Assembly (NCBI GenBank): GCA_027021385.1 | Contig: JALUUL010000008.1 | Coordinates: 87,469 to 151,468, forward strand | Length of the DNA: 64,000 nucleotides | Reading direction: 5' to 3' | From: Planctomycetota bacterium | Lineage (GTDB): Bacteria; Planctomycetota; UBA1135; GCA-002748355 | Part shown: one piece after another, positions 1,239 through 62,083 of the stretch | Numbering within the stretch: position 1 is the first letter of the stretch | Layout: each line of letters begins with the position of its first letter | Made by a program: the position numbers and the translations under genes | The notes under the pieces: generated by a model | What the model was told of the DNA's origin: nothing | The model's database searches: none | The model's input: the letters and a program-made list of their open reading frames with translations, nothing else

Positions 1239-1528
1239 CATGTACGTTTCGAACCTGGAATGGACATCGGCCTCCTCCGCGTCCGGAGCTCCCTCCGCTG
1301 ACCCCATCGCCGTCCTCCCCTGCGCCGGAAGCCCGCCTTCCGCCCCGGGGCCCCTTCCGCCGAGGAGTCCTTCTCGATCTCCTTCGTCCCTCTCTTCCGC
1401 ATGGTCCTGTGGAGTAGGCCGGTTAGGATTCCCCGAAGATCACGCCTTGCAGGTCCGCCCCATCTTCCCCGAAGATGGAATCTGCAGCCCCCCTTCATCA
1501 GGGCCCAGAGAGGACAGGAAGAATACGC

Positions 1529-2590: not shown

Positions 2591-2591
2591 G

Positions 2592-3518
2592 ATGGAAAAG
2601 GGATTCGGCACGGCGAGGCTCCGATCCGATTACCTCGATCCGAAGGTCCTGGACCGGATCGACAAGCTCGAACTCCGCGCGCGACTCGTAGTCGAGGGCT
2701 TCGTCTCGGGGATGCATCGGTCCCCCTACCGGGGTTTCTCCGTGGAGTTCGCCCAGCACCGGGAATACGTCCCCGGCGACGACATCCGCTTCGTGGACTG
2801 GAAGGTCTTCGCGAAGTCGGACCGGATCTACATCAAGGAGTTCGAGGAGGAGACCAACCTCAAGGCCCATGTCTTCGTCGACTCGAGCGAATCCATGGAA
2901 TACGGCGAGGAACGCTCGAAGTTCGACTACGCGGCGACTCTCGCGGCCTCCCTGGCCTTCCTCGTCCTCCGGCAAAGGGATTCCGTGGGTCTCGCGCTCT
3001 TCGACGAGACGACGGTTCGCCAGATCCCCCCCAGCAACAGCCGGGCGCAGCTCGGGGCTTTCGTCCAGGCCCTTTCCGAATCCCGGCCCGACGGAAAAAC
3101 GAGGGTCGGGAAGGTCCTCCATGAAGTCGCGGAGAGGATCGGGAACAAGGGGCTCATCATCATCATCTCCGACCTCTTCGACGAACCCGAAGGCGTGGAA
3201 TCGGGGATCCGGCACCTGAGGCACCGAGGGCATGATGTCCTCCTCTTCCACCTGATGGATCGAGACGAGGTCGATTTCCCCTTCCAGAGGATGACTCTCT
3301 TCCAGGGGATGGAGTCCATGCCGCGCCTTCTCGTCGACCCGAAGTCCCTCCGCGAGGCCTACCTCAAGGAAGTCCGGAAACACGAGGACAGGATCCGCAA
3401 GGCTTGCCTCTCGATGAAAGTGGACTACCAGAAGATCGTGACCGATCAGTTTCTGGATGTCGCCCTGGGGACCTATCTGGCGAAGCGGGCCTCCATGACA
3501 CGCGCGGCGAAACGATGA
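2592..3518 (+). CDS. DUF58 family protein (vWA-like, MoxR-associated)
   Basis: Signature RSPYRGFSVEFAQHREYVPGDDIRFVDWK and MIDAS-like VFVDSSESM. Start lies 2 nt after the moxR-like stop. Confidence 0.85.
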   Translation: MEKGFGTARLRSDYLDPKVLDRIDKLELRARLVVEGFVSGMHRSPYRGFSVEFAQHREYVPGDDIRFVDWKVFAKSDRIYIKEFEEETNLKAHVFVDSSESMEYGEERSKFDYAATLAASLAFLVLRQRDSVGLALFDETTVRQIPPSNSRAQLGAFVQALSESRPDGKTRVGKVLHEVAERIGNKGLIIIISDLFDEPEGVESGIRHLRHRGHDVLLFHLMDRDEVDFPFQRMTLFQGMESMPRLLVDPKSLREAYLKEVRKHEDRIRKACLSMKVDYQKIVTDQFLDVALGTYLAKRASMTRAAKR

Positions 3519-3531
3519 GAACGGGCGGGCC

Positions 3532-40709: not shown

Positions 40710-42581
40710 TCAACAGGGACAATGCACCGGGGAGTGGTCGGCTTGCACGGGCTCCTTCGGAAGTTGGATGAAAAAGGTCGTTCCCTTGCCGACCTCGCTC
40801 TCGACGGAGACCTCCCCTCCATGGGCCAAGACCAGTTCCCGGACGATGTAGAGGCCGAGCCCCGTCCCGGTGACCCCTGAGGTATTGCTCCCCCTGGAGA
40901 ATTTGCCCCAGATCTCGGACAGGGAGGCCTCGGGGATTCCGATGCCGTTGTCTTCCACGAGGAAGACCCAATCGTTCTCCCGCTCCTCGGCCCGGACCTT
41001 GATGTACCGGGGCTGCTTTTGAGGATCCCGGTACCGGATCGAATTGCCCAGGAGATTCATGAAGACCTTCGTCAAGGCCTTCGGATCTCCGACGATCTTG
41101 GGAAGGGGCTCGATGTAGGCGCGCACTTCCTGTTCGCCCAGAAGGTAGCGGAGCCGCTTCACGATCGTGCCGAACAGGAGGGTCATGTCGGTCTCCTCGA
41201 ACTCGAGTTTGACCCCGTCATAATCGAGTCTCGAGGATTCGACGATGTCTTCGATCAACTCCTCCATATAGTCCACGGAGTCCGAGGCGTTCTGGATCGC
41301 ATCCTTCTGAGTCTCGGTCAACTCCCCAAGTTGTCCTCCAAGCATCAACCGCACGACGGTCTTGAAGACGGTCAGGGGTTTCTTCAGGTCGTGGCTGATC
41401 AACTGGTTGACCTCGACCAGTTCGCGGTTCTTCCTTTCCAGGAGGGATTTGTATTCTGCGAGTTCCGCATAGAGACCGGCCATCTCCATGTTTGAGGTGA
41501 TGGCCTGGCCGAGCAGTCCGACTGCTTCCTCCTCCCCGAGACCTTCCTGCTCCTTCGGAACCTCCCCGGACTCCTCGGAGAACCTGGTGGAACCCTCGAC
41601 GGCCTCCTCAGTCCGGGAGGACCTCTCTGGCGCGGCCTCCCGCCCCTCGGCGCCGGCGGTTTCCTGAGAGGAACCCTCCAGGCGGATCTCCTCGAGCCCT
41701 TCTTCGAGAAGGTCCGGGGTCTCCTCGGTCCGTTCGGATTCCAGCAACCCCTCGTCCACCAGGAGGCGGCCCCCCTTCCCGCTCGCAAGGTCGGAGCCCG
41801 AGGCCTCGGGGTCGTCCCCCTTCACCCCCAAGTCCTCCGCCGCCTCCTCCGACACTATGACGTCCACTAAGCCCTGCTCTCGCACCGCGCCGGAGTCGTG
41901 GGAACATGCCCCACCGCTCTTCCGCGCCGCTTCCAGAATCCGCTCCGCCGCCTCCTCCGCGACCTTGACCGGGTCCGTTCCCTCTCCTGCGAGACCGTAT
42001 TGGCAGACTTTCTCCTCGACCATCAAGGCCGCGGCCCTCGCGAAGGCCTCCAGGACCCCTTCCCCGCTGGTCGCGACGGTCTCGTACTCCGGGACCTCCC
42101 GGAACCGGAGGCGTTTCGACAGCTCCTCCAGGGGCAAGGCGTCCTCGAGGTCGCGTTTGTTGTACTGCAACACCAGCGGGATCCGCTGCCAATCGAGCCC
42201 GTTCGCCCGTAAATTCCGTTTCAGATCCCGGATCGCCTGAAGGTTTTCCTCCAGGCGATCCGCTTTACTGTCCGCCACGAGGACCACTGCGTCGGCTCCC
42301 GAGAGCACGTACTTGCGCATGACGACGTACTTCGCCTGGCCGGGAACCGTGAAACCCTGGATCCGGATCTTGAACTCTCCGATCGAACCCAGGTCGATCG
42401 GAAGGAAATCGAAGAGAAGGGTCGCATCCTGCTCGGTATTGATCGAAACGAGTTTAGCTTCGTTCTTCGGACAGAGGATCTCATGGACGGCCTTGAGGCT
42501 CGTCGTCTTGCCGCCCAGCCCAACCCCGTAATACACGAGCTTGGCGTTGATCGTCTTTTCCTGAAGGTTGATAAAGCCCAT
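40710..42581 (-). CDS. MglA-like small GTPase fused to a cytoplasmic histidine kinase (623 aa)
   Basis: Residues 1-190: P-loop YGVGLGGKTT, TVPGQ (switch II), NKRD, PEYETVATSGEG. Residues 200-355: acidic linker, followed by a coiled coil. H-box ISHDLKKPL (His codon 41391-41393), N-box FMNLLGNSIRY, G1 VEDNGIGI, G2 GTGLGLYIV. No TM segment. Confidence 0.85.
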   Translation of the reverse strand: MGFINLQEKTINAKLVYYGVGLGGKTTSLKAVHEILCPKNEAKLVSINTEQDATLLFDFLPIDLGSIGEFKIRIQGFTVPGQAKYVVMRKYVLSGADAVVLVADSKADRLEENLQAIRDLKRNLRANGLDWQRIPLVLQYNKRDLEDALPLEELSKRLRFREVPEYETVATSGEGVLEAFARAAALMVEEKVCQYGLAGEGTDPVKVAEEAAERILEAARKSGGACSHDSGAVREQGLVDVIVSEEAAEDLGVKGDDPEASGSDLASGKGGRLLVDEGLLESERTEETPDLLEEGLEEIRLEGSSQETAGAEGREAAPERSSRTEEAVEGSTRFSEESGEVPKEQEGLGEEEAVGLLGQAITSNMEMAGLYAELAEYKSLLERKNRELVEVNQLISHDLKKPLTVFKTVVRLMLGGQLGELTETQKDAIQNASDSVDYMEELIEDIVESSRLDYDGVKLEFEETDMTLLFGTIVKRLRYLLGEQEVRAYIEPLPKIVGDPKALTKVFMNLLGNSIRYRDPQKQPRYIKVRAEERENDWVFLVEDNGIGIPEASLSEIWGKFSRGSNTSGVTGTGLGLYIVRELVLAHGGEVSVESEVGKGTTFFIQLPKEPVQADHSPVHCPC

Positions 42582-42610: not shown

Positions 42611-42642
42611 CCCGAATGCGGGCCGGGCCCGCCGGATTCGGG
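42611..42642 (-). other. Strong intercistronic stem-loop between the HEAT gene and the GTPase-kinase gene
   Basis: CCCGAAT/ATTCGGG outer stem (42611-17 / 42636-42). GCGGGC/GCCCGC inner stem with 3-nt loop and 3-nt bulge. Adjacent palindrome CCCTCGATCGAGGG (42594-42607) covers the purine-rich GAGGGGA upstream of the ATG at 42581. Confidence 0.4.
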
Positions 42643-42743: not shown

Positions 42744-44441
42744 TCAGAAGAGCGTCCAGAGAAAGTCGTTCGCGATCCCTGGAAACCCCTTCGGGTCCTT
42801 TCCGATCCCTTCGGCGATCTCCTTGAGACGCTTCCAGTCTTCGAGGTCCAGATCTCCCTTCAGATACCCGAGAACCTGGTTTCGATCGCGCACGGGGGCC
42901 GTCGGATCGTAGAGAACGCGCTTGAGGAGCCTCACCGCGCGGGCGTGGAGCCCGCCGTCCTCCTTCCCCTCGAGTCGGGAAAGGTTCGCGATGCAGCCTA
43001 GGAGATGGCTCCGGCGGACCGGATCGCCCCGGAGTTCCCGATAGGCCTTCCAGACGGGTTCGAGGGCCGAGGGGATGTTCGACAGCATCAGCGCGGCATA
43101 TCCGACGGATTCTATTTTCTTGGATTCGGAGAGAACCCTCGACGGAGCCCTGAGTTCTTCCAGGAGAACCGGCACTCCTTCGGGAAGCCGCATGTGGCCG
43201 AGGGCCTGAAGCAGGAGCCGCCGCTCGGCTCCATCCGCATCCCGCAGGCGCCGGCGAAGGACCGGGATCGCCGCCGCGAGTCCGGCATCGACGCAGAGGT
43301 CAAGCCTTTGCCGGAATCGGGACCCGGACAACCCCCCCAGGTCCTCCGTAAGACGACGAAGGGACGAGGAAGGACGCCCCCTTAGGGCCCTGGCCGCAGC
43401 ACGCTGGACCGTGGCATCCTCGTCGTTCAGGAGGACTTCGAGAATTCTCGTCGAGGCCTTGTCGCGGATCCCACCAAAGAAAGCCGCCACGTTCTGTCGG
43501 ACGAGGGGTGATTCCGACGCGGCGTGGTCCGCGACTTCCCGGCGGGAAGACGCAGCCGCCCGCACCCCGAGGGCGGCGATCAGGGAGGCGGTTCCAAGGG
43601 GGTCCCCGGACTTCGCCAGGGCGCGCAGGAGCCATGCCCGCCCCTCCTCGGACCCCGCCTCATGGAGGAGACGGGCGGCCAGGAGTCCGTCCTTTCCCCG
43701 GAAACGGCCGAGATTCCCCTCGAGGACCCCTCTCACGATTTGCGGGTCGGCCCCCTCTTCGAAGGTGGCGAGGATCCGGACCCGGAGTTCCGGGGCCTCA
43801 CGGAGACCTCGTTCCCCGGCGAGTACCGAGCGTAGGAACGGGACAGCCACGGAGGGCTTCCCGGCCTTGATCAGGATGCGGAGGATCCGGATCCGGGACC
43901 CGGGGGTGACCCTGTCGAAACGATCGCAAAGGGCCGCGACCGTTTCTGGCTTTGCGCAGCGCTCGAGGGCCTTCAGGGCGGCGGCCTGGACCCGGCCCTT
44001 GGGATGGCCGATGGCCTTCCGGATCCAAGGGTCGTATCTCTCGTCCCCGCTGCCCTCCATGACCTCCAAGCCGTTCAAGAGGGGTGCGGTATCCAGGGAT
44101 CCGAGAAGCCAGGTGTCCAGGTAGGCCCCGACCCTCTCGATGACGTCGGGATCGTGCAGGCGGGACAGGAAACCCTTCGCGAACCTCCAGGCCCGGGCGG
44201 TCGTTCCTCCCGGCAGCCGCTCGATCAGGCGACCCAGGGCCTCTCCTCTCGAGAAGCGATAGAGGGCCCTGGAGGCGGCCCAGGGTTCATCGAGAGGAAG
44301 TGGATCGAAGAAACGCGCCTGCCGGGGGGCTGTCCCCGAGGTAGGCCCTCCCTCCTCTCCGCCGCCGGGGGCCTCCTCACCTCCCCCGCAGGAGACCGAG
44401 AGGAAAGCGAAAAGGAGAATCGTGATGGAGACACGCACCAT
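42744..44441 (-). CDS. HEAT-repeat (PBS-lyase-type) putative lipoprotein
   Basis: ATG 44441 preceded by GGAAGGA gives MVRVSITILLFAFLSVSCGG. HEAT-like units DPWIRKAIGHPKGRVQAAALKALER, SESPLVRQNVAAFFGGI, DEDATVQRAAARALRG. Confidence 0.7.
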   Translation of the reverse strand: MVRVSITILLFAFLSVSCGGGEEAPGGGEEGGPTSGTAPRQARFFDPLPLDEPWAASRALYRFSRGEALGRLIERLPGGTTARAWRFAKGFLSRLHDPDVIERVGAYLDTWLLGSLDTAPLLNGLEVMEGSGDERYDPWIRKAIGHPKGRVQAAALKALERCAKPETVAALCDRFDRVTPGSRIRILRILIKAGKPSVAVPFLRSVLAGERGLREAPELRVRILATFEEGADPQIVRGVLEGNLGRFRGKDGLLAARLLHEAGSEEGRAWLLRALAKSGDPLGTASLIAALGVRAAASSRREVADHAASESPLVRQNVAAFFGGIRDKASTRILEVLLNDEDATVQRAAARALRGRPSSSLRRLTEDLGGLSGSRFRQRLDLCVDAGLAAAIPVLRRRLRDADGAERRLLLQALGHMRLPEGVPVLLEELRAPSRVLSESKKIESVGYAALMLSNIPSALEPVWKAYRELRGDPVRRSHLLGCIANLSRLEGKEDGGLHARAVRLLKRVLYDPTAPVRDRNQVLGYLKGDLDLEDWKRLKEIAEGIGKDPKGFPGIANDFLWTLF

Positions 44442-44472
44442 GTTCCTTCCATAGGCCGGAATCCGGCGGGGG

Positions 44473-46191
44473 TCACCTCCGGGAACGGGCATCCTGTCCC
44501 CCTTCCACCGCCCCCTTCTTCCGGGCAGCCTCCAGCGGACGCAGGGCGTCGGAGCGGTCGATCCGGCCCAAAGCCGCCTGGAGCACGAACCACGCCTTCC
44601 GGTATTCGAGCCGCGAGCGGAGGAGCCTCGACTTCGCGTCCGAGAGTTCCTGGTTGCGCCGCTGGACTTCGAACAGGGTCGTGCTGTCGAGCTTGAGCTT
44701 GATCCTCTCGGTTTCGAGGTTGCTCTCCGCGAGCCGTACGGAGACCCGCGCCGCCTGGATCGATTTCCACTGGACGCGGATCGCCCGGAGCGCCGCCCGG
44801 ATCTCCTTGACGATCTCGATCCTCAGGATCTGGAGATTCCGGCGCGCCTGTTCCAACCGGATCCTCGCCTGCCTCCAGGCGCTTTCGGCGGCCACGTTCC
44901 CGATCGGGACCTCCATGCTCAGTTTCAGGCTGTAATCGGGGAACTTCCTCTCGAAGATGTCCCGTTGCAGATCCGCGGTGTCGTCCGTCACCGCGTCGAC
45001 CGAATAGGATCCACTGAGGTCCAGAGAGGGGAGCAGCCCGGACCTGGCCTCCTCCACCTCGATCCGCGCCTTCTCGACACGGATCCTCGCGGCCCGGAGA
45101 TCCGGTCGTTCGGCGAAGGCCGTGCGCCTGGCCTCTTCCGGACTCGGAGGATGGAAAACCGGATCCTTGGTGCCGAGATTCTCGCTCGGACGGATCACGG
45201 GGGTCCAGTCTCCCATCTCCTCGAAGGGAAAGAGCAGGCGCTTCAACACATCCTCAGCGTCCAGAATCGCGTTCTCCGCCTGGATCAGCTCCTCCTCGCG
45301 GCGTGCGACCTCGGTCCGGTCCGCAATCCGATCCCTCGGAGCCAGTTCCCCGAGGAGGATCCGCTTCTCGGTGTTCCGGAACTGCTCCCGCGCGACCTCC
45401 AGGGTCTCGAACTTGACCCTCCACTCCTCACGGGTGAAGACCAGATCGTAGTATGCCTGGACAATCGAGGAGAGCAGGGTCTGGCGCTGCCGCTCCCAAT
45501 CCTTCCGGTTCGCTCTCTGGTCGAGGCGCGCCTTCCGGATCCCGGCCTTCTGGAATCCGACCCAGGCTCCTCTCAGGAGGGGTTGGGTGAAGGTCAGTGA
45601 CAATTCTCCGGTGAACTGCGTGCTCGGGAAGGAAAAAATCGAGTTGACCTGCTGGTCGGTGAAGGTCGGGCGGAAGGCCAGCTCCCAGGTACCTCCGCTC
45701 AGGATCTTCTGGCGGAAACCGAGGTTGAGGCCGTATGTCCGTTGGATCGAACTCGGAACGAAGGAGTTCCGGCTCGGAACCTTCCGGCGCGCCCAGTCCG
45801 CTTCGGAGAAGAAGAGGGGATCGAAGGCGCCTCGCTCCTTTCGCTCCGCTTCACGCGCCAGGACCTCGTCCAGGTACTTGAGGCGGAGATCGACGTTTCC
45901 CTCGAGGCCCAGCCGGAGACATTGTTCGAGCCCTAATTCGAGGCTCGGTCCCGCTCTCCGGTCGGTCGGCGGAACGGGGGCCCTCGCTCCTTGCGGATTG
46001 CGCGGCCCTTGCCCCCGCCGGTCCCGGGACGCGGGGGGCATCCTCCTCCTTCCGGACGGGGAGGGGCGTTCCGGCCCTCCGGGAGTCCGGGAAGCGGGCG
46101 CAGTCCTACCCCCCTGCGGGGGTTCCGGATCGACCGCGCGCCCGGCCTGGGGAAGCCAGAGAACGAAGCCGAGGATGAACGGGATCGACAC
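44473..46191 (-). CDS. TolC-family outer membrane factor
   Basis: GTG 46191 preceded by GGAGGA (9-nt spacer) gives signal-like VSIPFILGFVLWLPQAGRAV. Two-repeat OEP-type helical/beta pattern (LELGLEQCLRLGLEGNVDLR..., ERPDLRAARIRVEKARIEVEEARSGLLPSLDLSGSY...). Sequence upstream of the tracked ORF is R/P junk. Confidence 0.8.
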   Translation of the reverse strand: MSIPFILGFVLWLPQAGRAVDPEPPQGGRTAPASRTPGGPERPSPSGRRRMPPASRDRRGQGPRNPQGARAPVPPTDRRAGPSLELGLEQCLRLGLEGNVDLRLKYLDEVLAREAERKERGAFDPLFFSEADWARRKVPSRNSFVPSSIQRTYGLNLGFRQKILSGGTWELAFRPTFTDQQVNSIFSFPSTQFTGELSLTFTQPLLRGAWVGFQKAGIRKARLDQRANRKDWERQRQTLLSSIVQAYYDLVFTREEWRVKFETLEVAREQFRNTEKRILLGELAPRDRIADRTEVARREEELIQAENAILDAEDVLKRLLFPFEEMGDWTPVIRPSENLGTKDPVFHPPSPEEARRTAFAERPDLRAARIRVEKARIEVEEARSGLLPSLDLSGSYSVDAVTDDTADLQRDIFERKFPDYSLKLSMEVPIGNVAAESAWRQARIRLEQARRNLQILRIEIVKEIRAALRAIRVQWKSIQAARVSVRLAESNLETERIKLKLDSTTLFEVQRRNQELSDAKSRLLRSRLEYRKAWFVLQAALGRIDRSDALRPLEAARKKGAVEGGQDARSRR

Positions 46192-46401
46192 GGTCGGAAA
46201 TCCTCCTGGGTGTTCGAGGCGGGCGAGGATAGGTTCCGATGACGGGGAGGCGGAAGGATATTTCAGGAAGGCGGGGATCCGTCGTCTCCTCCGACACGCC
46301 CTCCTCGCGGAGGAGAAGCACCGCGACCTCCAGACCTCCCGCTCGCCATATATCCTTTCCCCAGGCCCGCCCATGTGCTCCGGGCCGGGGCGGGCCGGAT
46401 C

Positions 46402-47880
46402 TCAATCCGAACGATCGAGCATGGGGGCGAGATAGACCATCTGCGCGAGCAGCAGGGAGGCCGCGCCGTGCAGGTCCGAGGGTTTCGCGCTCGCGACATG
46501 GCGGCGGAGCGCCCTTTCGAAGCGGGCCCAGCCCTTTCCCTCGACATGAGAGGCCCAGGCCAGGAACTGGATCGCCCGGGGTTCAGCCTCCAGCCAGGAA
46601 GGATCCCGCCGTTCGAGTTCGAGCCGATGGAAGAGTTCCGGACGGTCGACGAGGTCCCCGTATCCGAAGAGGAGGGCGGCGCAGGCGACGGCCCCCCCGC
46701 TACCCCCCCGGGAAGTTCGAGCCCGGAGATGCTCGAGAAGGGCCTTCCGGAGTCGGGCCGCGGAGACCGGATCCGCCCCGAGCGCGGGCGCCAGCCGGAG
46801 AAGCAGCCCTGCGTCCGCGAGACAGGTCGAGGAGATCGCCCAACTCGCCAGGGAGGGAGGAACCGAGTCCTTCTTTCCGACCCTCAAGGTGTAGAGGTCC
46901 GTTTCCATCCTTCGCCGCCGCTCGAGGAGAAAGCGAGCCTCCTCGGCGGCCTGCAGGTTCGCGGCCTCCTCGCGGACGAAGCGTACGACCTCGCGGCGAA
47001 GAAAGGCGAGTCGATACCCTCCCGAGACGAGGGCCCCCTCGAGGAAGCCGGCGAGGGCGTGCACCCGGTCCTCCCCGGCGAGTTTCGGAAGGCGGTCCTG
47101 GAGGCGGTCGAGTACGGACCGGACGAGCCGGTGAGCCGGTCCCCTCCGGGGAGTCGATCCGGTCAGGATCAAGGCCCGGAGCCCCAAGGCCAGGTCGGCC
47201 AACGAAGGGTTCCCCTCGAGGCCCTCCCGAACCTTCCGGGAGAGGTCCGCGATCCGCCTTCGTGTCCGTCCGTCGACGACCCCTGTCCTCGCGAGTCTCT
47301 GGCGGAGATCGCCCTTCCCCGAGGGATCGAGGAGACGGCGCAGCCGTTGGAGGTCGTTCTGCGCCCCGAGCCAGGCGAGCCGGGCGGGGTCCGGCCGCAT
47401 CCGCGGGGAGGAGCGGGGAAGCGTCCTCTCCGGAGTCGGCTTCGGAAGGAAGACGACCGTCTCCCGCGACGGTTTCGAAGGGGTCCCGCCGGCGGCCCCG
47501 AAGGCCGCGATCCCGATCCGCAGGAGCAGCAGGAGCAGCAGGAGGTAGACCAGGGATCGGACCCCCCTCGAGGCCTGGAAGGCGGCCTTCGCCCGGCCGG
47601 CGAAGAGGAGGAGGACCTCGAGGAGATCGGCCGGACTCTTCAGGGGATCCGTCCAGGACCTGCGCCGGAGGATGCGCCCCTTGACCGCGGAGAAGACCTT
47701 CCCCGTCGGCTCCGGAACGGGGATCCGCCTGAGGGGATCGAGCAGATCGGCGATCTCCCGCGCGAGACAGGGGTCCTCGGCCTCGAGGGTCCGGCCGGGC
47801 GGGGAAGGCGCAGCGGGAAACCCGCCGCCGGGGGGGGCGGCTCCGGGCTCGCTTCGGTCTCGGGGGCGCTCGCCGTTCAT
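46402..47880 (-). CDS. Single-pass membrane protein in anti-sigma position (492 aa), helical extracytoplasmic domain
   Basis: ATG lies 4 nt after the ECF sigma stop. About 100-aa cytoplasmic N-terminus. TM SLVYLLLLLLLLRIGIAAFGAAG. Large helical C-terminal domain. No canonical zinc anti-sigma HxxxCxxC motif seen. Confidence 0.55.
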   Translation of the reverse strand: MNGERPRDRSEPGAAPPGGGFPAAPSPPGRTLEAEDPCLAREIADLLDPLRRIPVPEPTGKVFSAVKGRILRRRSWTDPLKSPADLLEVLLLFAGRAKAAFQASRGVRSLVYLLLLLLLLRIGIAAFGAAGGTPSKPSRETVVFLPKPTPERTLPRSSPRMRPDPARLAWLGAQNDLQRLRRLLDPSGKGDLRQRLARTGVVDGRTRRRIADLSRKVREGLEGNPSLADLALGLRALILTGSTPRRGPAHRLVRSVLDRLQDRLPKLAGEDRVHALAGFLEGALVSGGYRLAFLRREVVRFVREEAANLQAAEEARFLLERRRRMETDLYTLRVGKKDSVPPSLASWAISSTCLADAGLLLRLAPALGADPVSAARLRKALLEHLRARTSRGGSGGAVACAALLFGYGDLVDRPELFHRLELERRDPSWLEAEPRAIQFLAWASHVEGKGWARFERALRRHVASAKPSDLHGAASLLLAQMVYLAPMLDRSD

Positions 47881-47884
47881 GGCA

Positions 47885-48571
47885 TCAAGCGAGGACCCGG
47901 TCGGGCCGGGCGCCCCCTCCTCCCCGGGATTCGCCGGGGTTCAGGATCCCTTTCAGGGCCCGGACGGCGTGATGCATCCGGGACTTCACGGTGCCCTCGG
48001 GGATCTTCAGGAGGTCGGCGACCTCCTTGTAGGGAAGATTCTGGAACACGGCGAGTTCGAAGACGAGCCGGTGGTGCATCGAAAGGCGCTGGAGAGCGGC
48101 CTGGAGTCGATCCCGGTCCTCGGCCGCGGACAGGGGGTCCCGAGCGGGGGCCGGGGCGGCCAGCCCCTCGAGCAACGGGGAGTCCTCCTCGTGGGCCGCG
48201 GCGTCCAGGGAGAGGAGGCGGGGCCGCGGCCGGCGGGAACGGTAATGGTCGATCCAGCGGTTCGTCGCGATCCGATAGAGGAAGGTCGAGAGTTTCCCCT
48301 GGGGTTCGTAAGTAGCGGCGCCCCGAAGGAGGCGCAGGAAGACGTCCTGGGCGAAATCCTCCGCCCGGTCCCGGTCCCAGCAGAGACGATAGAAGAACCG
48401 GATCAACGGCTCCTGGTAACGCGTGACGATCGCGTCGAAGGCCTCCCGGTCCCCGGCCCGGAAGCGGGCCAGCAGGTCGGGATCGACCTCGGGGCCGCTT
48501 CCGTTCCCGCCCTGGGGAGCCCCGGGCTCCAAGGGGTTCTTCGGACTGTCGGAGGCCTTCATCGGGGTCAT
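47885..48571 (-). CDS. ECF-type RNA polymerase sigma-70 factor
   Basis: Region 2: DREAFDAIVTRYQEPLIRFFYRL, DFAQDVFLRLL, STFLYRIATNRWIDHYR. Region 4: YKEVADLLKIPEGTVKSRMHHAVRAL. Start ATG 48571 or 48562. The tracked extension to 48841 is rejected. Confidence 0.85.
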   Translation of the reverse strand: MTPMKASDSPKNPLEPGAPQGGNGSGPEVDPDLLARFRAGDREAFDAIVTRYQEPLIRFFYRLCWDRDRAEDFAQDVFLRLLRGAATYEPQGKLSTFLYRIATNRWIDHYRSRRPRPRLLSLDAAAHEEDSPLLEGLAAPAPARDPLSAAEDRDRLQAALQRLSMHHRLVFELAVFQNLPYKEVADLLKIPEGTVKSRMHHAVRALKGILNPGESRGGGGARPDRVLA

Positions 48572-51246: not shown

Positions 51247-53391
51247 TCAGTTCCGATCTTCGGAGCTGGAGGACTCCGGGGGGCGACCGCTCTCGAGGTG
51301 GAAGCCCAGATCCCTCACGAGTCTCCGGAACTCGTCTCGCGACACCCGGTCTCCAAACTCCATCTCCCGAGCTCCGAGTCGTTCTCCGCAGAGTTCCCGG
51401 ACCCGGCTGTTCGCGCAGAGGGCGTCCATGACCTCCCGCCTCCGGGTCCGCAAGCGTCCGTCCTCTCCGAGGTAGAGGATCCCGGCGCGGTCCCCCCAGT
51501 CCCGAATGCTGAATCGCACGTTCTGCGGGAGCGGCGTCCTGCAGCGCTCGCTCAGGACGCGGAGGATCTCGCCGAGGGTCATGCCGTCCGCGAGGGCGGA
51601 CCGCACGCTCTCCTCGGAGAGCTGGAAGCGGAACACCCGGTCCGAACTCCGTCTCCGGCTGAACCGATCGAGGGTGTGAACGAGTTCGAAGGCGTCCGCC
51701 TCGGGGAAGAGGAGGATCTCGAAGTCGGGATTCACGACGAGGGTCGAACGGGCCCCCTCCGCCCCCTGGGCGGGCTGGGTCGCGAGGAGGGAGGACCCGA
51801 GGTCCGAGAGCCGCAACGCGACCGGCATGCCCCCTTCGTCGAATCCGAGATCCACGATTCCGAGGAGGTGAAGCCTGTGGCGCACCCAATGGAAGAGGTG
51901 CCAGGACATCTGCACGAGGTCCTCGTAGCGGAGGTAACGGCCCTGCGCCTTCGCGGCGGCGAACCATTCGGCGACTCCGAGCGCGTCCAGCTGGCTCAGG
52001 TAGGTGTTCCGCGCGAGGTGGGGAAGGTACATCGCGTCGTACCATCTCCCCGGTTCGATTCGGCGGAGGAGCCGGAGGAGGATGCGCCGGAGATGGGTCT
52101 GGTGGAACGGATCCCCCCCCAGATCGGGATCCTCGACCGCGAAGGCGAGAAGGTCGCGCAGCTTGTCCGGCAGGGCGAGGGCCTCGAAGGATCGTCCCTT
52201 CGCCCCCAGGCGGAAGGTCCGTTCCCCGCTGCGGTCGATCCACCTCCGCTGCCTGCAGAAGCGGAAGATGAAACGGAAGATCCCCTCGGGGTCCTCACCG
52301 CCCTCGACCGTGACGAGCCGGGACTGGATGCGCTTCTGCGTCGCCTTGAAGACCTCCCCTTTGACCGTGTAGCGGACCCCGTTTTCATCGACGTAGCGCA
52401 GGAAGCGCATGACGTTCGTCGCGAGGTCCACCCCGGCGACGACCTCCTTCGCCGGGATCCTCTCCCCCTCGGAGGCGCGCCGGCGGAGGAGGGCCAGCGT
52501 GATCTCCTGGAAGAGGATCAGGGTCGGTTCGGCCAGATCGATGCCATAGGCCCGGAGATCCAGATTCCTCCAGGTCCCGGTCAGGGATTCCTCGAGCCGC
52601 TTTCCGAGTTCCGGACCGAGAAGGGCTCCTTCCTCCGGGTCGAGGGCCCGCTCCGCCAGGGTCCTCGGGAGAAGACCGCCGAAACGGTAGGCGGTCGTCT
52701 CGACGAGACACCGGTCCTCCGCGGCGAGACGCCGGAGCCGCCCGCGGATCGCCCCCGGCATCAGGAAGAGCTTGTAGGCCTGCCGCGCGTGCCGCGCCGA
52801 TTTCTCGCGGGTCTCCTCGTCCCCATCCCCCCGCCGGGTCTTGCGGAAATGGCGATCCCCGAGGAAGGCCTTCAGGGTCAGGGGGCCGGCTTCGGCCGGC
52901 CCCTCCCCTTCCCGCTCGGACCCGCCGGGGGAACGAAGGAGTTCCTGGAGCGGGGTCACGAGTTCGCGGCCGAGCCCCCAGGCCGGGCGGCGATACCGGT
53001 CCCAACGATCGTCCTCCAGCGGGAACACGAGCCCCATGTCCGCGAGTTCCTCGAGACGCGCCTCGAGCGCCTGCTGCGGGACCCCCCTCTCCGCGGCCGA
53101 GCGAAGGAGCTGCTCGTGGGTCCTTACCCCGTCCGGGCTCGCGACGAACTCCTTCAAGAGATCCTTACAGAACGGATCCATGCCCTCGAGACGCCGGGCG
53201 AGACGGTCCGGGTCGCACATCGACCCGATCAGGCGTTCGATGCCGTCCTTCGAGGGGGGACTCCGTTCCGGAATCCACCGTTCGTGCAGGGATTCGATAC
53301 GGGCCTGCAGAAGCCCCGACAGGAATTCCTTCAAGCTGATGCCGTTCAACTCGCCTCCCCCCGGTCCGCGGCCTCGCTTTCGGTCTCCCAT
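51247..53391 (-). CDS. XPB-associated protein (about 714 aa) with C-terminal XPB-N-terminal-domain-like module
   Basis: Reading frame is clean from ATG 53391 (or TTG 53349, overlapping the xpb stop). The C-terminal ~165 aa (51250-51750) parallel the N-terminus of the adjacent XPB helicase. The upstream 600 codons of tracked ORF 51247..55194 are shadow-frame junk. Confidence 0.65.
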   Translation of the reverse strand: MGDRKRGRGPGGGELNGISLKEFLSGLLQARIESLHERWIPERSPPSKDGIERLIGSMCDPDRLARRLEGMDPFCKDLLKEFVASPDGVRTHEQLLRSAAERGVPQQALEARLEELADMGLVFPLEDDRWDRYRRPAWGLGRELVTPLQELLRSPGGSEREGEGPAEAGPLTLKAFLGDRHFRKTRRGDGDEETREKSARHARQAYKLFLMPGAIRGRLRRLAAEDRCLVETTAYRFGGLLPRTLAERALDPEEGALLGPELGKRLEESLTGTWRNLDLRAYGIDLAEPTLILFQEITLALLRRRASEGERIPAKEVVAGVDLATNVMRFLRYVDENGVRYTVKGEVFKATQKRIQSRLVTVEGGEDPEGIFRFIFRFCRQRRWIDRSGERTFRLGAKGRSFEALALPDKLRDLLAFAVEDPDLGGDPFHQTHLRRILLRLLRRIEPGRWYDAMYLPHLARNTYLSQLDALGVAEWFAAAKAQGRYLRYEDLVQMSWHLFHWVRHRLHLLGIVDLGFDEGGMPVALRLSDLGSSLLATQPAQGAEGARSTLVVNPDFEILLFPEADAFELVHTLDRFSRRRSSDRVFRFQLSEESVRSALADGMTLGEILRVLSERCRTPLPQNVRFSIRDWGDRAGILYLGEDGRLRTRRREVMDALCANSRVRELCGERLGAREMEFGDRVSRDEFRRLVRDLGFHLESGRPPESSSSEDRN

Positions 53392-55076
53392 TCGCGGATC
53401 TCGTAGCCGTACCCCTGCTCGGCGAGGAAGCGCTGCCTCTTCGCCGCGAATTCCTGGTCCTTCGTGCCGGCCGTCACCAGGGCGTAGAAGGTCGCCCCGC
53501 CCCCGCCGGCCTTGGGGCGAAGGATGCGGCCCAACCTCTGCGCCTCTTCCTGCCTCGAACCGAAAGTGCCCGAGACCTGGATCGCGACGTTCGCGTCCGG
53601 CAGATCGATTGCGAAGTTCCCGACCTTCGAAACGGCGAGAACGGGAATCTCCCGGTTTCGGAAAGCCGTGTAGAGGCGCTCCCTCTCGGCCGTCGGAGTC
53701 CTCCCCGTGATCAGGGGCAGGGCGAAACGCGAGGCGAGTTCCCGAAGCTGATCCAAGTACTGGCCGAGGATCAGGACCTGGTCCCCCTCGTGTTCCTCCA
53801 GGAGACGGGCAACGACCGAGAGCTTCGCGGGATTCGCACCCGCGGCCTTCACCGCGAGTCGCGGGGTCATCTCGAGATAGGCGACCCTCGACGCGGGGGG
53901 CAGGGGCACACGGATCTCGATGCAGCGCGCCGCCGCGATCCAACCCTGCTCCTCGAGTTCCTTCCAGGGAACGTCGTAGCGCTTCGGTCCGATCAAGCTG
54001 AAGACATCGTCCTCCTTCCCGTCCTCCCGGATGAGCGTCGCGGTCAGACCCAGCCGGCGGCGGGCCTGGATCTCGGCGGTCGCCCGGAAGACCGGCGCCG
54101 GGAGGAGATGCACCTCGTCGTAGATGATCAGACCCCAGTCCCCGTCCTCGAAGAGGGAGAAATGCTCGAAGGCCCCGTCCTTGCTCCGGCGCCAGGTCAA
54201 GATCTGATAGGTCGCGACCGTGACAGGAGCCACTTCCTTGCGGTCTCCGGTGTACTCCCCGACCTCGGTCTCCGAGAGGAGGGTCTTGTCGAGGAGTTCC
54301 CGCCGCCACTGGCGGACCGCGACGGTGTTCGTCGTCAGGATCAACGTACGGACCTTGAGGAGGTCCATGACCGCGAGGCCGACGATCGTCTTGCCCGCGC
54401 CGCAGGGAAGGACCAGGACCCCGCTTCCTCCCCGGACCGATCCCCCGGCATGGAAGACGCGGGCGGCTTCGGCCTGGTAGCGCCTCAGGCGGAACGGGGA
54501 GCCGGAGCGCGTCCGCTCCCGGAGGCCGAAGCCCGGAAGGGGCGATCCCCGGCGGTATCCGGCGAGATCCTCGACCGGGTAGCCGAGCTTGATCAAAGCC
54601 TGCTTGAGCCGCCCTCGGTCCCCCTCCTCGATCAGGAAGGAGCCGCCGGGTCCGTCCCGGAGGAGCGGGGCCACGCTCCCCGCCGACGCGAGTTCCCCGA
54701 GGACCTCGGAATCCGCGCCCTCGAGGAGGAGTCGGTCGTCCTTCCGAACGAGCCGCAGGAGGCCGTAGCGCCGATACCAGTCCCGGATCCGCTCCAGGAG
54801 GACCCCCGGCACCGGGAAGCGGCTCCCCCGCTCCAGGCCCTCTTCGAGGTCCTCGAGCCGAAGCCCCGCCGCGGCCGCGTTCCAGACCGAGATCGGGCCG
54901 ACCCGGTAGAAATGCACGTGCTCGGGCGCCTTCTCGAGTTCGGCGAAGAGGGCGAGGAAATCCCGGGCCTCCTCGTAGCCCTCCTGGTCCACCTCGAGAA
55001 GGATCGTTCCGTCCCCCTGGACGATCATCGAGCCGGGACGAAGCTCCTTGCCGGGGTTGTGGATCCTTGCTTCCAA
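53346..55076 (-). CDS. XPB/Ssl2(ERCC3)-family SF2 DNA helicase
   Basis: Motif I VLPCGAGKT, motif II IIYDEVHLL, motif III GLTATL followed by the XPB-specific RED motif (TLIREDG), motif VI GSRQEEAQRLGRILR. TTG start at 55076. Alternative ATG 55028 (MIVQGDGT). Confidence 0.85.
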   Translation of the reverse strand: MEARIHNPGKELRPGSMIVQGDGTILLEVDQEGYEEARDFLALFAELEKAPEHVHFYRVGPISVWNAAAAGLRLEDLEEGLERGSRFPVPGVLLERIRDWYRRYGLLRLVRKDDRLLLEGADSEVLGELASAGSVAPLLRDGPGGSFLIEEGDRGRLKQALIKLGYPVEDLAGYRRGSPLPGFGLRERTRSGSPFRLRRYQAEAARVFHAGGSVRGGSGVLVLPCGAGKTIVGLAVMDLLKVRTLILTTNTVAVRQWRRELLDKTLLSETEVGEYTGDRKEVAPVTVATYQILTWRRSKDGAFEHFSLFEDGDWGLIIYDEVHLLPAPVFRATAEIQARRRLGLTATLIREDGKEDDVFSLIGPKRYDVPWKELEEQGWIAAARCIEIRVPLPPASRVAYLEMTPRLAVKAAGANPAKLSVVARLLEEHEGDQVLILGQYLDQLRELASRFALPLITGRTPTAERERLYTAFRNREIPVLAVSKVGNFAIDLPDANVAIQVSGTFGSRQEEAQRLGRILRPKAGGGGATFYALVTAGTKDQEFAAKRQRFLAEQGYGYEIREWETESEAADRGEAS

Positions 55077-55278
55077 GAGTCGGGAGGGGTGTTGACGGCC
55101 CCCCCGGGAGGGGGCGGAGGGCGGGAAAGCGCCCGGATCGCGCCGTCAGAAAAGCGAAGCATTCTACCCCTGGAACCGGGGAACGGACCAGCACCGCCTC
55201 GAGGGGGCGCCGGACCGTCCCGGGCCATCTTTCCGGCTTCCCCGAATGGGCCTTGACAAGGGGACGAAGGGGACCGAC

Positions 55279-61095
<5,817 letters not shown>

Positions 61096-61142
61096 CGCCC
61101 CTCCATAGGGCCCTCCGCCGCTCCGGGTCAACGCCGGGCTTG

Positions 61143-61175
61143 CGATTCGGAGCGGGAAACCCGGATTCCGAATCG
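61143..61175 (-). other. Palindromic stem-loop between the IMPase gene and uvrA
   Basis: CGATTCGGA (61143-51) pairs with TCCGAATCG (61167-75). Inner CGGG-AAA-CCCG. It begins 6 nt downstream of the IMPase stop (61181). Confidence 0.4.
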
Positions 61176-61180
61176 GCTCT

Positions 61181-62083
61181 TCAGGGGTTCCGCTCCTCCG
61201 CCCGCCCTTTCAAGAGGGGAGCGGCCCGCTCTAGGAGGGGGCTCGAACCCGCGAGGATCTCTCCTCCGAACAGCGCCCCGTCCCCCGAGCCGAGGTCTCG
61301 GACCTCCCCCCCGGCGGCCAGGACGAGCGCGATTCCGGCCGCGACGTCGTAGGGTCGGAGATGGAGTTCCCAGAACAGGTCGTAGATCCCCGAGGCGGTC
61401 ATCGCGAGGTCGATCGCGGCCGAGCCGCACCGCCGGATCCCCCGCACGATCCAGAACATCCGCTCGAAGTTCCCGAGGTTCGGATTCACGCCGGACTCGT
61501 TGCGGTCGTACGAGAAGCCCGTCGCGACGACCGCCTTCTCGAGGTCCGTGCAGCGGGAGACCCGGATCGGGCGCCCTCCCCGCCAGGCCCCCAGGCCGGG
61601 GATTCCGACCCAAAACTCCCCTTTCCCGCCGCGACCGAGCGCCGGGGCGTGAACGAGGCCCAGGACGGGCCGGCCCTCCTCGAGGAGCCCGAGACTGACC
61701 GCCCAGTGGGGATGTCCGTGAACGAAGTTCGTCGTCCCGTCCAGCGGATCGAGGACCCAGCAATACCTGCCTTCCCCGTCGATCTCTCCGGCCTCCGAAG
61801 CGACCCCCTCTTCGGCGAGGAAGGCGTCCTCGGGGAACTCACGGCGGAGGGATTCGACGATCCTCTCCTCGGAGGCCCGGTCGGAGGCGGTGACGAGTTC
61901 CCTCCTGCCCTTGTATTCCGGGTCCACCTGGGCCGCCTCGCGGTTCTCGAAATCCGACAGGAGGAGGTCTCCGGCCTCTAGGCAGACCGCCTCGGCCCGA
62001 CGGAGCCGGGCCCGAAGGTCCGGATCCGCGACGAGATCGGATCGAAGGGGGCCGCCCCCTCCCCCGGGATCGGAGACCGTCAC
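61181..62083 (-). CDS. Inositol monophosphatase family protein (SuhB-like)
   Basis: GTG 62083 overlaps the upstream stop (GTGA). FLAEEG, WVLDPLDGTTNF, WAVSLGL, GSAAIDLAMTASG, YDVAAG. The tracked 582-aa ORF's N-terminal 280 aa are R/P junk overlapping the next gene. Confidence 0.85.
   Translation of the reverse strand: MTVSDPGGGGGPLRSDLVADPDLRARLRRAEAVCLEAGDLLLSDFENREAAQVDPEYKGRRELVTASDRASEERIVESLRREFPEDAFLAEEGVASEAGEIDGEGRYCWVLDPLDGTTNFVHGHPHWAVSLGLLEEGRPVLGLVHAPALGRGGKGEFWVGIPGLGAWRGGRPIRVSRCTDLEKAVVATGFSYDRNESGVNPNLGNFERMFWIVRGIRRCGSAAIDLAMTASGIYDLFWELHLRPYDVAAGIALVLAAGGEVRDLGSGDGALFGGEILAGSSPLLERAAPLLKGRAEERNP

Follow-up and report, generated by a model that had tools for sequence, protein, structure and literature searches.

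An MglA-type G domain without the intrinsic arginine finger is fused to a soluble histidine kinase in a planctomycetotal protein family

The window analyzed here, a stretch of 64,000 nucleotides from a Planctomycetota contig, carries on its reverse strand a gene (40710..42581) that is read from its ATG start as one unbroken open reading frame of 623 amino acids plus stop. All coordinates given below refer to the same strand. We confirm that this gene joins an MglA-type G domain lacking the arginine finger to a complete soluble histidine kinase, as had been proposed in a sequence-only reading of the DNA. The motifs quoted in that reading (GVGLGGKTT, QDAT, TVPGQ, NKRD, SHDLKKPL and the N, G1 and G2 boxes) were all located in the translation, and no transmembrane segment was found in the 623-residue protein, the maximum Kyte-Doolittle mean over 19 residues being 1.28. 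The G domain and the histidine kinase of this gene are the only ones in the 64-kb window.

Adjacent mglA and kinase genes merged by a frameshift or a misassembly, a possibility already raised in the sequence-only reading, can be dismissed with near certainty as the origin of the fusion. The frame is uninterrupted, the gene is called identically in an independent public assembly, 117 colinear homologues of 540–680 aa align with the protein from end to end, and the same single reading frame is present in 80 genome loci. The 120 best protein clusters all have this architecture, and the fusion is encoded in at least 188 species-representative genomes; among the matches listed (80 genomes), all are metagenome-assembled and most are labeled Planctomycetota. 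The genes are currently annotated as "ATP-binding protein", "hypothetical protein" or "SRP receptor subunit beta". The fusion is thus not rare and forms a conserved family, but no published description of an MglA-histidine kinase fusion was found in the literature, in line with the view that the architecture is uncharacterized.

The gene directly upstream (42744..44492) is co-directional and encodes a HEAT-repeat protein of 582 aa with a lipoprotein-type N-terminus (cluster c37; Pfam HEAT_2, 9e-16). From its position, it probably shares a transcription unit with the fusion gene. The 162-nt spacer upstream of the fusion gene has no significant structured RNA (z = -0.5), and no sigma-70-like promoter was found upstream of the gene. 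Clustering of the open reading frames of 83 loci revealed two unrelated types of neighborhood. The HEAT-repeat gene is syntenic only in the clade of the window (8 loci), where the neighbors are the HEAT lipoprotein and a CarboxypepD_reg gene, and it does not count as a conserved partner, given that other neighbors, an ABC ATPase and an uncharacterized lipoprotein, are found in the majority clade. The upstream genes of the two types are unrelated (hhalign probability below 1%); both read as exported lipoproteins from their N-termini, which makes them unlikely partners for a cytoplasmic protein. No gene partner conserved across both types was supported among the 83 loci. Both clades have an ECF sigma factor in the vicinity of the gene; the two are only 25–30% identical, however, so that orthology is not supported.

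Neither a Roadblock/LC7 gene, which would encode an MglB-type GAP, nor a receiver-domain gene had been recognized in the window in the sequence-only reading, and both absences held up. No called gene of the 64-kb window matches Pfam Roadblock_LC7 or Response_reg, the absence of MglB holding at Pfam sensitivity within these limits, and a receiver HMM run on the six-frame reading frames of the window retrieved nothing at E ≤ 1. The same HMM recovers true receivers in the other loci, although only three scattered ones. Around four Pfam-annotated members of the family and its sister family, no Roadblock/LC7 gene was detected (±10 kb, including L003 and L004; ±8 kb for L085), and no receiver gene was seen in these four neighborhoods. 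A gene of about 130 aa found downstream in 26 majority-clade loci (cluster c11), and missing from the window, was considered as a hidden receiver. The proposal is not supported: its Pfam match covers only 24 residues (E = 0.05), and the hhalign probability against CheY, PhoB and Spo0F is 1%.

Residues 1–190 (42012..42581) constitute a Group-1-type MglA G domain. A phmmer search of the PDB aligned them without gaps and colinearly to Myxococcus xanthus MglA (PDB codes 6hjh, 5ymx and 6h17) with an E-value of 1.4e-53, and to Thermus thermophilus MglA (3t12) with an E-value of 1e-44. The best matches outside MglA, Arl6 and Rab7, score 1e-5 or worse. The colinearity noted previously stands, and the domain does not belong to another P-loop family. 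The Arf model of Pfam matches residues 71–181 with 24.3 bits (cutoff 22.3). NCBIfam holds no curated HMM specific for MglA, and the only match of genuine M. xanthus MglA is to the generic small_GTP model and falls below cutoff; membership in the MglA family rests, for this reason, on the PDB and motif evidence. The AlphaFold2 model of the domain superimposes on MglA structures (6izw_A and 6h5b_A) with a TM-score of 0.89 in Foldseek. The pLDDT over residues 41–60 is low, about 58.

The G domain is the best-conserved part of the protein, with a column identity of about 0.9 in the family alignment. In the P-loop (GVGLGGKTT, residues 19–27; 42501..42527), Gly21, the equivalent of Ras Gly12, is kept, and G19, G21, G23, G24, K25 and T26 are found in 119 of the 120 relatives, the one other row having a gap. 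The G3/switch II motif TVPGQ with the catalytic Gln82 (residues 78–82; 42336..42350) is unchanged in all 120 relatives; TVPGQ is the signature of Group 1 MglA (PMC4316618). N141, K142 and D144 of the guanine-specificity motif G4 (NKRD, residues 141–144; 42150..42161) are invariant, as is the segment T54-L55-L56-F57-D58-F59-L60-P61. The latter includes the hydrophobic β2 residues L55, L56, F57 and F59, which in MglA are exposed in the GTP form by the "β2-screw"; L55, F56, F57 and F59 of MglA form a GTP-dependent partner surface (PMC3199381). Substitutions specific to the clade with respect to MglA (P20V, K/R41E, G42V, F56L, L76G, V83P and T88M) are spread over the P-loop, switch I and switch II, the protein of the window having Ala at position 83 against the V83P of its clade.

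The loss of the arginine finger together with several substituted P-loop and switch positions could be taken to mean that the G domain has lost nucleotide binding and is now a purely structural or dimerization domain. We regard this as very improbable. All guanine-nucleotide-binding elements (G1–G5, Thr54 and Gln82) are retained in the sequence, and G1 (GxGxGGKT), Thr54, TVPGQ, NKxD and the Ala of G5 are strictly or almost strictly conserved in at least 117 sequences that have diverged to 45–70% identity, unlike decayed sites. With regard to Group 1 of the MglA family, the domain has the Ras-superfamily similarity and TVPGQ, whereas the intrinsic arginine finger, the single-domain stand-alone form and a cognate MglB adjoining the gene (in the 64-kb window and the annotated neighborhoods) are absent.

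The arginine finger is replaced at codon 53 (42423..42425), which reads GCG and encodes Ala, as had been noted; Ala53, in the motif QDAT (residues 51–54), aligns with Arg53 of the MglA structures. Among the 120 relatives, position 53 is Ser in 89, Ala in 30, Gln in one and Arg in none. By contrast, Arg occupies it in 138 of the 148 nearest representatives at 50% identity and in 102 of 102 members of the MglA-GAF-HK family, the sister clade in the G-domain tree. The fusion family is monophyletic in this tree (100/100 bootstraps), and the loss of Arg53, judged from tree and alignment, is a clade-wide trait of single origin and no peculiarity of the gene in the window. Arg53 was termed "absolutely conserved in MglA proteins" (PMC3199381), and an intrinsic arginine finger beside the G2 threonine is present in all members of Group 1 (PMC4316618). 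In T. thermophilus MglA, the R53A mutation strongly reduces both the intrinsic and the MglB-stimulated hydrolysis, about as much as G21V does (PMC3199381). A GAP-independent or slow-cycling G domain, as put forward in the sequence-only reading, is thus a plausible outcome by analogy.

One might instead suppose a full and fast GTPase cycle in which an unlinked GAP, MglB-like or of another kind, or the partner G domain in the kinase dimer provides the arginine or its equivalent in trans. The strict conservation of Gln82 and Gly21 fits a G domain that still hydrolyzes GTP with help in trans, as does the invariant Thr54; Gly21 is found in 119 of 120 sequences, with one gap. The position of Ras Gly12 must remain small for an arginine finger to act in trans. 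Histidine kinases of the HisKA class are obligate dimers, which would hold two G domains close to each other. MglA proteins of Groups 2–5 do not have the arginine and yet function with MglB partners (PMC4316618), and the genome could carry a gene for MglB or a different GAP at some other locus. Against this, MglB contributes no catalytic residue (PMC3199381), so that a GAP of this type could not stand in for Arg53. In addition, no Roadblock/LC7 gene lies in the window or near the four annotated members, and no invariant arginine specific to the family was seen among the conserved residues of the G domain, the linker and the following helix. A complete fast cycle is, on balance, unlikely.

The G domain is followed by a conserved extension (residues 191–225; 41907..42011) with a helix at residues 204–226 (pLDDT 88–94), in which Y195, G196, L197 and A208 are conserved at 90% or more. 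The next segment (residues 226–349; 41535..41906) is the acidic linker described earlier: residues 226–350 contain 29% Asp plus Glu, with a pI of 4.1, and are predicted to be disordered (AlphaFold2 pLDDT below 50). Across the family, the linker varies from 53 to 247 aa with column identities of 0.06–0.46. The only short motifs found in it are weak and specific to the majority clade, and none occurs in the clade of the window. A conserved helix (residues 350–392; 41406..41534) then runs into helix 1 of the DHp domain, and in the AlphaFold2 model residues 350–414 form one unbroken helix into the H-box region. The overall pTM of the model of the 623-residue protein is only 0.51.

The kinase half displays a complete HisKA/HATPase core, as had been reported. 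The DHp domain (residues 393–455; 41217..41405) contains the HisKA match of Pfam (residues 393–453, 6.8e-10) and the H-box H397-D-L-K-K-P-L (41373–41393; SHDLKKPL, residues 396–403), of which H397, D398, L399 and P402 are invariant, the pair H397-D398 being present in 117 of 117 sequences. The residue at His+4 is Lys in the protein of the window and Lys or Arg in all 117, and never Thr or Asn; Thr or Asn at this position is needed only for the phosphatase activity of HisKA kinases (PMC3510030). The catalytic ATP-binding (CA) domain (residues 456–610; 40752..41216) matches HATPase_c (residues 498–610, 1e-28) and contains the N, G1, F and G2 boxes, with N513, D544, G546, G548, F561 and G572–L577 (GxGLGL) invariant in the family. 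It is followed by a conserved C-terminal tail P-V-Q-x-x-H-S-P-V (residues 611–623; 40713..40751), for which the family alignment has P608 and P611 invariant, H616 in 111 and S617 in 109 of the 117 sequences. In the monomer model, the pLDDT over residues 350–610 is mostly 83–98, with one dip at residues 561–570, and the kinase resembles HK853 (Foldseek E = 4e-19, TM-score 0.73). The half thus has the features of a class-I (HisKA) kinase, that is, the His followed by an acidic residue, the CA boxes, and the four-helix-bundle DHp and α/β CA folds, and lacks the phosphatase motif at His+4 and a response regulator encoded nearby. The kinase column identity is about 0.7; together with the invariant boxes, the identities of both halves suggest that each is under purifying selection.

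The nearest relatives of the G domain (54–61% identity) belong to the MglA-GAF-HisKA-HATPase proteins (e.g., P0126, GCA_016277765.1), which occur in Planctomycetota and Acidobacteriota and for which no published study was found. They have in common with the fusion the order of G domain, linker, conserved helix and kinase. Unlike in the fusion, their helix is separated from the kinase by a GAF domain; they retain Arg53 and a canonical HE-x-x-T H-box, and have Ala or Pro at P-loop position 21. An HMM of helix 350–392 matches them at about residues 250–300 with E-values down to 1e-11 (hmmsearch; 0 matches in the shuffled control), and on these matches the helix is homologous to their pre-GAF helix. 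The kinase halves are only about 25% identical, too little to be informative on common origin, the signal of which came from the pre-kinase helix. The fusion is a member of a wider, unrecognized class that carries an MglA domain at the N-terminus and also includes the large MglA-GAF-HK family. Since Arg53 is lost here and position 21 is altered there, both kinase-tethered lineages have a substitution at a hydrolysis-critical position. The change at position 21 seems to have arisen independently of the Arg53 loss, and fast hydrolysis appears to have been disabled along different routes in these related lineages, by R53S/A in one and by G21A/P in the other.

How the two halves communicate is less evident, because a disordered and poorly conserved linker of 53–247 aa cannot carry a rigid signal, and allosteric coupling is consequently not obvious. 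The G domain might then be a targeting device only, whose GTP form recruits a constitutively active kinase to a partner or site without control of catalysis, the flexible acidic tether allowing the kinase to reach local substrates, much as MglA-GTP binds polar effectors. The mechanical uncoupling expected from such a long and variable linker favors this explanation, as do the G domain being better conserved than the kinase, which is expected under constraint by an external partner, and the conserved hydrophobic β2 patch for partner binding. The clade-specific changes of charge and shape in switch I (K/R41E and G42V) are suggestive of a new partner. However, no candidate partner gene is conserved alongside in both types of neighborhood. 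Moreover, the linker is much shorter in one MglA-GAF-HK sequence, and this, with the shared helix that leads into the signaling domains, has the look of an element that transmits an input. We consider targeting alone to be improbable.

The reading that we prefer, with a probability of about 0.5, is that a hydrolysis-impaired, GTP-binding MglA-type input module controls an orphan, kinase-biased histidine kinase, the mechanism being inferred. The protein would be a soluble, presumably dimeric class-I (HisKA) kinase with the N-terminal G domain as its sensor or input module. The G domain would bind GTP and hydrolyze it slowly, and would thereby be a long-lived switch of nucleotide state or partner binding and not a fast, MglB-driven oscillator. 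Its state may reach the kinase through the post-G helix, the tether and the helix of residues 350–392 that is continuous with DHp helix 1, either because the tethered G domain docks, depending on its nucleotide, onto this helix or the DHp-CA core, or because the G domains pair inside the kinase dimer. The output would be mainly the phosphorylation of an unlinked (orphan) response regulator.

More tentatively, the kinase may be gated directly by guanine nucleotide, the GTP or GDP state, or a partner that reads it, setting the autokinase output. Such gating would employ a switch that is paired by the kinase dimer, has no arginine finger and works without MglB-type GAPs or GEFs. If true, a Ras-superfamily switch would here be coupled directly and covalently to two-component phosphotransfer for the first time, in a bacterial counterpart of the ROCO/LRRK2 logic. 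MglA is a model bacterial Ras-like switch, and the fusion offers a compact, single-polypeptide system for the question of how such a switch can control phosphotransfer, as well as a test of what takes over from the arginine finger. The reference survey of prokaryotic small GTPases took in single-domain proteins only; given the fusion clade and the larger MglA-GAF-HK family, the diversity of the MglA family and its two-component links have been under-counted. Planctomycetota have an unusual cell biology and, to our knowledge, no studied MglA system, and the fusion raises the question of the role of MglA-type switches in this phylum.

Over 190 residues, the G domain aligns colinearly with M. xanthus and T. 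thermophilus MglA at about 45% identity, and it shares TVPGQ with Gln82, Thr54, the β2 hydrophobic residues and the predicted fold (TM-score 0.89). It differs in being fused, in Ala53 (Ser or Ala in the family), in the clade-specific substitutions and in having no adjoining mglB. In the actinobacterial conservon, which consists of the histidine kinase CvnA, the Roadblock protein CvnB, CvnC (DUF) and the MglA-like GTPase CvnD, a histidine kinase is likewise coupled functionally to an MglA-family GTPase that lacks the arginine finger, and the system comes without a response regulator gene next to it (PMC4316618, PMC13343842). The conservon, however, comprises four separate proteins encoded in one operon with a membrane-bound kinase. 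Its GTPase belongs to Group 2 (GTPGQ, with Thr in place of the Arg) and is regarded as the output, controlled through the Roadblock protein. The gene in the window, by contrast, has no Roadblock gene nearby and encodes a covalent fusion with a Group-1-type G domain at the N-terminus, the usual position of an input.

The DHp and CA core is about 31% identical to that of HK853 from Thermotoga maritima, a relative of HisKA kinases of the PhoR/WalK/PnpS type, with a TM-score of 0.73 and all boxes present, although the NCBIfam equivalog scores of the kinase are all far below cutoffs. Unlike kinases of this type, it has no transmembrane segment, PAS/HAMP sensor or adjoining regulator, and Lys replaces Thr at His+4, so that the phosphatase motif is missing. 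ROCO proteins such as LRRK2 (Roc GTPase-COR-kinase) unite a Ras-like G domain with a protein kinase in one dimeric polypeptide, and the G domain is thought to control the kinase. The logic of the fusion is similar, by analogy only: the protein has no COR or Roc match in Pfam at E ≤ 1, and it combines an MglA-type instead of a Roc-type G domain with a histidine kinase instead of a Ser/Thr kinase.

The fusion gene (40710..42581, minus strand) is a single open reading frame of 623 amino acids, as the sequence-only reading had it, and its product starts with MGFIN..., in agreement with the MSFIN... start of MglA. When residues 1-200 were compared with all PDB sequences by phmmer, they matched MglA from M. 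xanthus (6hjh, 5ymx, 6h17) at E = 1.4e-53, colinear over residues 1-190, and from T. thermophilus (3t12) at E = 1e-44, versus 1e-5 or worse for the best matches outside MglA (Arl6 and Rab7), which bears out the earlier assignment of the N-terminus to the MglA type. Pfam scores the G domain as Arf (24.3 bits; cutoff 22.3) and recovers the complete kinase core that had been recognized, as HisKA (residues 393-453, 7e-10) and HATPase_c (residues 498-610, 1e-28). NCBIfam holds no MglA-specific model, and genuine MglA fails there too; the window protein shows only generic similarity to PhoR/WalK/PnpS-like kinases and falls far under all equivalog cutoffs. No hydrophobic segment was found in the protein, the maximum 19-residue Kyte-Doolittle mean being 1.28, consistent with the claimed lack of a transmembrane segment.

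An AlphaFold2 model was built on 117 homologues (mean pLDDT 79, pTM 0.51). The G domain (residues 1-190) is modeled with a pLDDT of about 90, which drops to about 58 over residues 41-60 in the switch I/beta2 region. As judged from the model and family conservation, a conserved helix (204-226) follows, and beyond a disordered linker (226-349) one unbroken helix (350-414) runs through the H-box (H397) and precedes DHp helix 2 (423-454) and the CA domain (462-608). The linker corresponds to the acidic low-complexity stretch previously described, with 29% Asp+Glu and a pI of 4.1, and spans 53 to 247 residues across the family. A Foldseek search of the PDB superimposes the G half on M. xanthus MglA (TM 0.89, 45% identity) and the kinase half on HK853 (E = 4e-19, TM 0.73). 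The connection between the two halves consists of a tether and a conserved helix running into the DHp. A conserved tail with the motif P-K-x-P-V-Q-x-x-H-S-P-V (residues 608-619; residues 611-623 are encoded by 40713-40751, minus strand) comes after the CA domain and has no known counterpart; H616 and S617 are kept in >93% of the family, and the window protein terminates in ...HSPVHCPC.

The same domain pair recurs widely in other genomes. The best 120 matches in a 5.8-billion-protein collection are all 529-759 residues long with identical domain order, and those labeled bear Planctomycetota or Planctomycetes names. With each GTDB species represented by one genome, 188 genomes were found to encode a relative, and the 80 listed among them are all MAGs; the carriers are without exception uncultured. 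Judged from these sequences, the family is conserved and widespread rather than an accident, and an artefact is hardly conceivable. Mean column identity is highest in the G domain (about 0.9), followed by the kinase (about 0.7) and the linker (0.06-0.46). Invariant or near-invariant residues comprise GxGxGGKT, T54, TVPGQ, NKxD and G175 in the G domain, and H397, D398, N513, DxGxG, F561 and GxGLGL in the kinase. Purifying selection therefore acts on both halves, which argues against a pseudokinase and, given the preserved nucleotide-binding motifs, makes a pseudo-GTPase very improbable. The strong conservation seen in the G domain, together with the long, floppy linker, would favor a role of this domain in targeting only, an alternative that we consider unlikely. 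No account of an MglA-kinase fusion turned up in literature searches, in line with the suspicion that the architecture is uncharacterized. Database labels for this family and the MglA-GAF-HK sister family discussed below read 'ATP-binding protein', 'hypothetical', 'signal transduction histidine kinase/SRP receptor subunit beta' and occasionally 'MglA'. The fusion proteins are real, widespread and uncharacterized, with a testable mechanism.

The proposed replacement of the arginine finger holds: phmmer alignments place Ala53 of the window protein opposite Arg53 of the MglA structures (QDAT vs TDRT), and codon 42423-42425 reads GCG in the DNA. None of the 120 relatives has Arg at this position: 89 have Ser, 30 have Ala and one has Gln. 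When the G domain alone was searched against 1.84 billion 50%-identity representatives, 1,599 proteins were retrieved at E <= 1e-30, and Arg53 is present in 138 of the nearest 148, the exceptions being the window's family and two singletons. Neighbour joining of the G domains groups the Ser/Ala53 proteins in one split (100/100 bootstraps), and arginine loss is, by sequence, a clade character. Further substitutions fixed with respect to Arg-bearing relatives (P20V, x37C, K/R41E, G42V, F56L, L76G, V83P, T88M and L91Y) sit in the P-loop, switch I and switch II; position 83 is Ala in the window protein versus Pro in most family members. Arg53 has been described as 'absolutely conserved in MglA proteins', and its mutation depresses hydrolysis, both intrinsic and MglB-stimulated, to about the same extent as G21V, MglB itself contributing no catalytic residue (Miertzschke et al., PMC3199381). 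The partner interface exposed by the beta2-screw (L55/F56/F57/F59; PMC3199381) stays hydrophobic in the fusion family (L55, L56, F57, F59). By sequence, the protein is soluble and conserved, with an intact guanine-nucleotide-binding domain of the MglA type that lacks the arginine finger. Since Gln82 and Gly21 are invariant, a normal fast GTPase cycle, in which an unlinked GAP or the dimer partner would complete catalysis in trans, can be envisaged, but seems doubtful to us.

In HisKA kinases, an acidic residue at His+1 is needed for kinase activity, and Thr or Asn at His+4 for phosphatase activity only (Willett & Kirby, PMC3510030). The H-box of the window protein reads H397-D-L-K-K, and His+4 is Lys or Arg in 117/117 family members. 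The HisKA/CA core is intact with the phosphatase residue missing, and the family is predicted to be kinase-competent and phosphatase-poor.

Only about 8 of the 150 nearest G-domain representatives have stand-alone size; almost all are 300-970 residues long with the G domain N-terminal. Pfam architectures include MglA-GAF-HisKA-HATPase (P0126, P0130, P0133, P0140, P0150, P0268), MglA-GAF-PAS-HK (P0166), MglA-HK (P0135, P0139), MglA-GAF (P0132, P0137) and MglA-pentapeptide-ion channel (P0194; WP_151968485.1, Ca. Uabimicrobium amorphum). Several N-terminal-MglA proteins of 530-970 residues have a C-terminal part without a Pfam domain, and Arg53 is retained in the N-terminal MglA domain of P0194, P0164, P0259, P0267 and P0134. 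The G-domain tree places seven Arg53-bearing proteins as the immediate sister group, four of them MglA-GAF-HK (P0126, P0130, P0133, P0140), along with P0135 (MglA-HK), P0141 (MglA-GAF, possibly truncated) and P0131 (270 aa, G domain only). With P0126 as query, 529 matches at E <= 1e-20 were obtained from Planctomycetota and Acidobacteriota (Thermoanaerobaculia), mostly MglA-GAF-HisKA-HATPase proteins of 700-760 residues (for example L085:8001-10208), a family for which no published description was found.

Identity between the kinase halves is only about 25% from one family to the other. The 43-residue helix preceding the H-box (350-392) has a homologue in the sister proteins, where it lies ahead of the GAF domain at about residue 250-300; a search with this helix matched 89/257 proteins, reaching the sister family down to E = 1.8e-11, and a shuffled control matched none. 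G domain, linker and helix therefore constitute a module common to both, and the window's family has the look of a derivative without the GAF domain. Position 53 is Ser/Ala (Gln in one) in the window's family and Arg in 102/102 sister proteins, whereas P-loop position 21, equivalent to Ras Gly12, is Gly in all aligned sequences of the former and Ala/Pro in 101/102 of the latter; each kinase-tethered lineage is thus substituted at one of two sites where mutation cripples hydrolysis by MglA. In MglA itself, GAP-stimulated hydrolysis is abolished by G21V. The H-box is HDL[NK][RK]P in the window's family and canonical HE-x-x-T in 87/102 sister proteins.

The earlier failure to recognize Roadblock/LC7 or receiver genes was reproduced: Pfam found neither Roadblock_LC7 nor Response_reg among the called genes of the 64-kb window, and a receiver HMM gave no match at E <= 1 in its six-frame ORFs. 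The fusion gene encodes the sole G domain and the sole kinase of the window, and no Roadblock or receiver gene was seen around two loci of relatives (L003, L004) or the sister-family locus L085. The fusion gene is the last gene of a co-directional minus-strand block (42744-48571 upstream of it) of an ECF sigma (47885-48571), a 492-residue protein without Pfam match, an OEP outer-membrane factor and a lipoprotein-type HEAT-repeat protein (42744-44492); a convergent CarboxypepD_reg gene lies 19 bp downstream. This block is syntenic in the window's clade only (7-9 loci). About 50 loci make up the majority clade, in which the upstream genes encode a double ABC ATPase and an unknown ~440-residue protein and the downstream genes vary. 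The upstream proteins of the two clades are unrelated; in our reading both begin with a lipoprotein signal. A shared ECF sigma partner was rejected, the nearby sigma factors being only 25-30% identical. With no conserved linked partner in the neighbour tabulation, the kinase behaves as an orphan.

A conserved ~125-residue ORF (c11; L003:18607-18984, minus strand, and 25 other majority-clade loci), absent from the window, sits downstream of the fusion gene at a distance of 0.4-2.5 kb. The beta-alpha-beta pattern that it encodes (…GGHDCLVVGPDVRPG…FHPGSRAG…LLRFL) resembles a degenerate receiver domain; a receiver identity is not supported, with no significant Pfam match and an hhalign probability of 1% against receivers. 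The 162-nt spacer between the HEAT and fusion genes contains a GC-rich inverted repeat (CCCGAAUCCGGCGGGCC…GGCCCGCAUUCGGG; 42611-42642, minus strand); taken as a whole, the spacer shows no folding advantage over shuffled sequence (z = -0.5). Elsewhere in the window, a giant ORF (55282-61209, minus strand; 1,976 aa, GC3 0.87) carries two sets of UvrA_inter, UvrA_DNA-bind and ABC_tran at about twice normal UvrA length, and resembles a UvrA paralogue duplicated in tandem; an XPB/ERCC3-RAD25-type helicase gene adjoins it (53349-55145, minus strand; Helicase_C_3, ResIII, ERCC3_RAD25_C). The co-directional run at 1427-12751 (plus strand), encoding a MoxR AAA ATPase, DUF58, BatA, VWA and a 1,492-residue PQQ_2 beta-propeller protein, resembles an aerotolerance (Bat)/MoxR-VWA-type operon. 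Base composition steps near ~46000, from GC 0.61-0.68 (1-46 kb) to 0.68-0.72 (46-64 kb).

The reading we favor, at a probability of roughly 0.5, is that the G domain is an input module that binds GTP and hydrolyzes it slowly. Nucleotide-dependent docking, or G-domain pairing within the kinase dimer, would convey the signal and thereby set the autokinase output, which would be directed at an unlinked response regulator.

Group 1 MglA is defined by TVPGQ and an arginine conserved in all members, and Groups 2-5 by GTPGQ with Thr at the arginine position, in a survey of single-domain proteins only that mentions neither Planctomycetes nor kinase fusions (Wuichet & Sogaard-Andersen, PMC4316618). The window protein is therefore Group-1-like in G3 and breaks the Group-1 arginine rule; it also differs from Group 1 in not standing alone and in having no linked MglB within the 64-kb window. 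The fusion is not a conservon, in which the membrane kinase, the Roadblock protein and the Group-2 GTPase are encoded by separate genes (PMC4316618, PMC13343842). The protein lacks a COR domain and is not a ROCO protein, so that ROCO/LRRK2 logic serves as an analogy only. In its working, it would come closest to a cytoplasmic sensor kinase with a small GTPase as its sensor.
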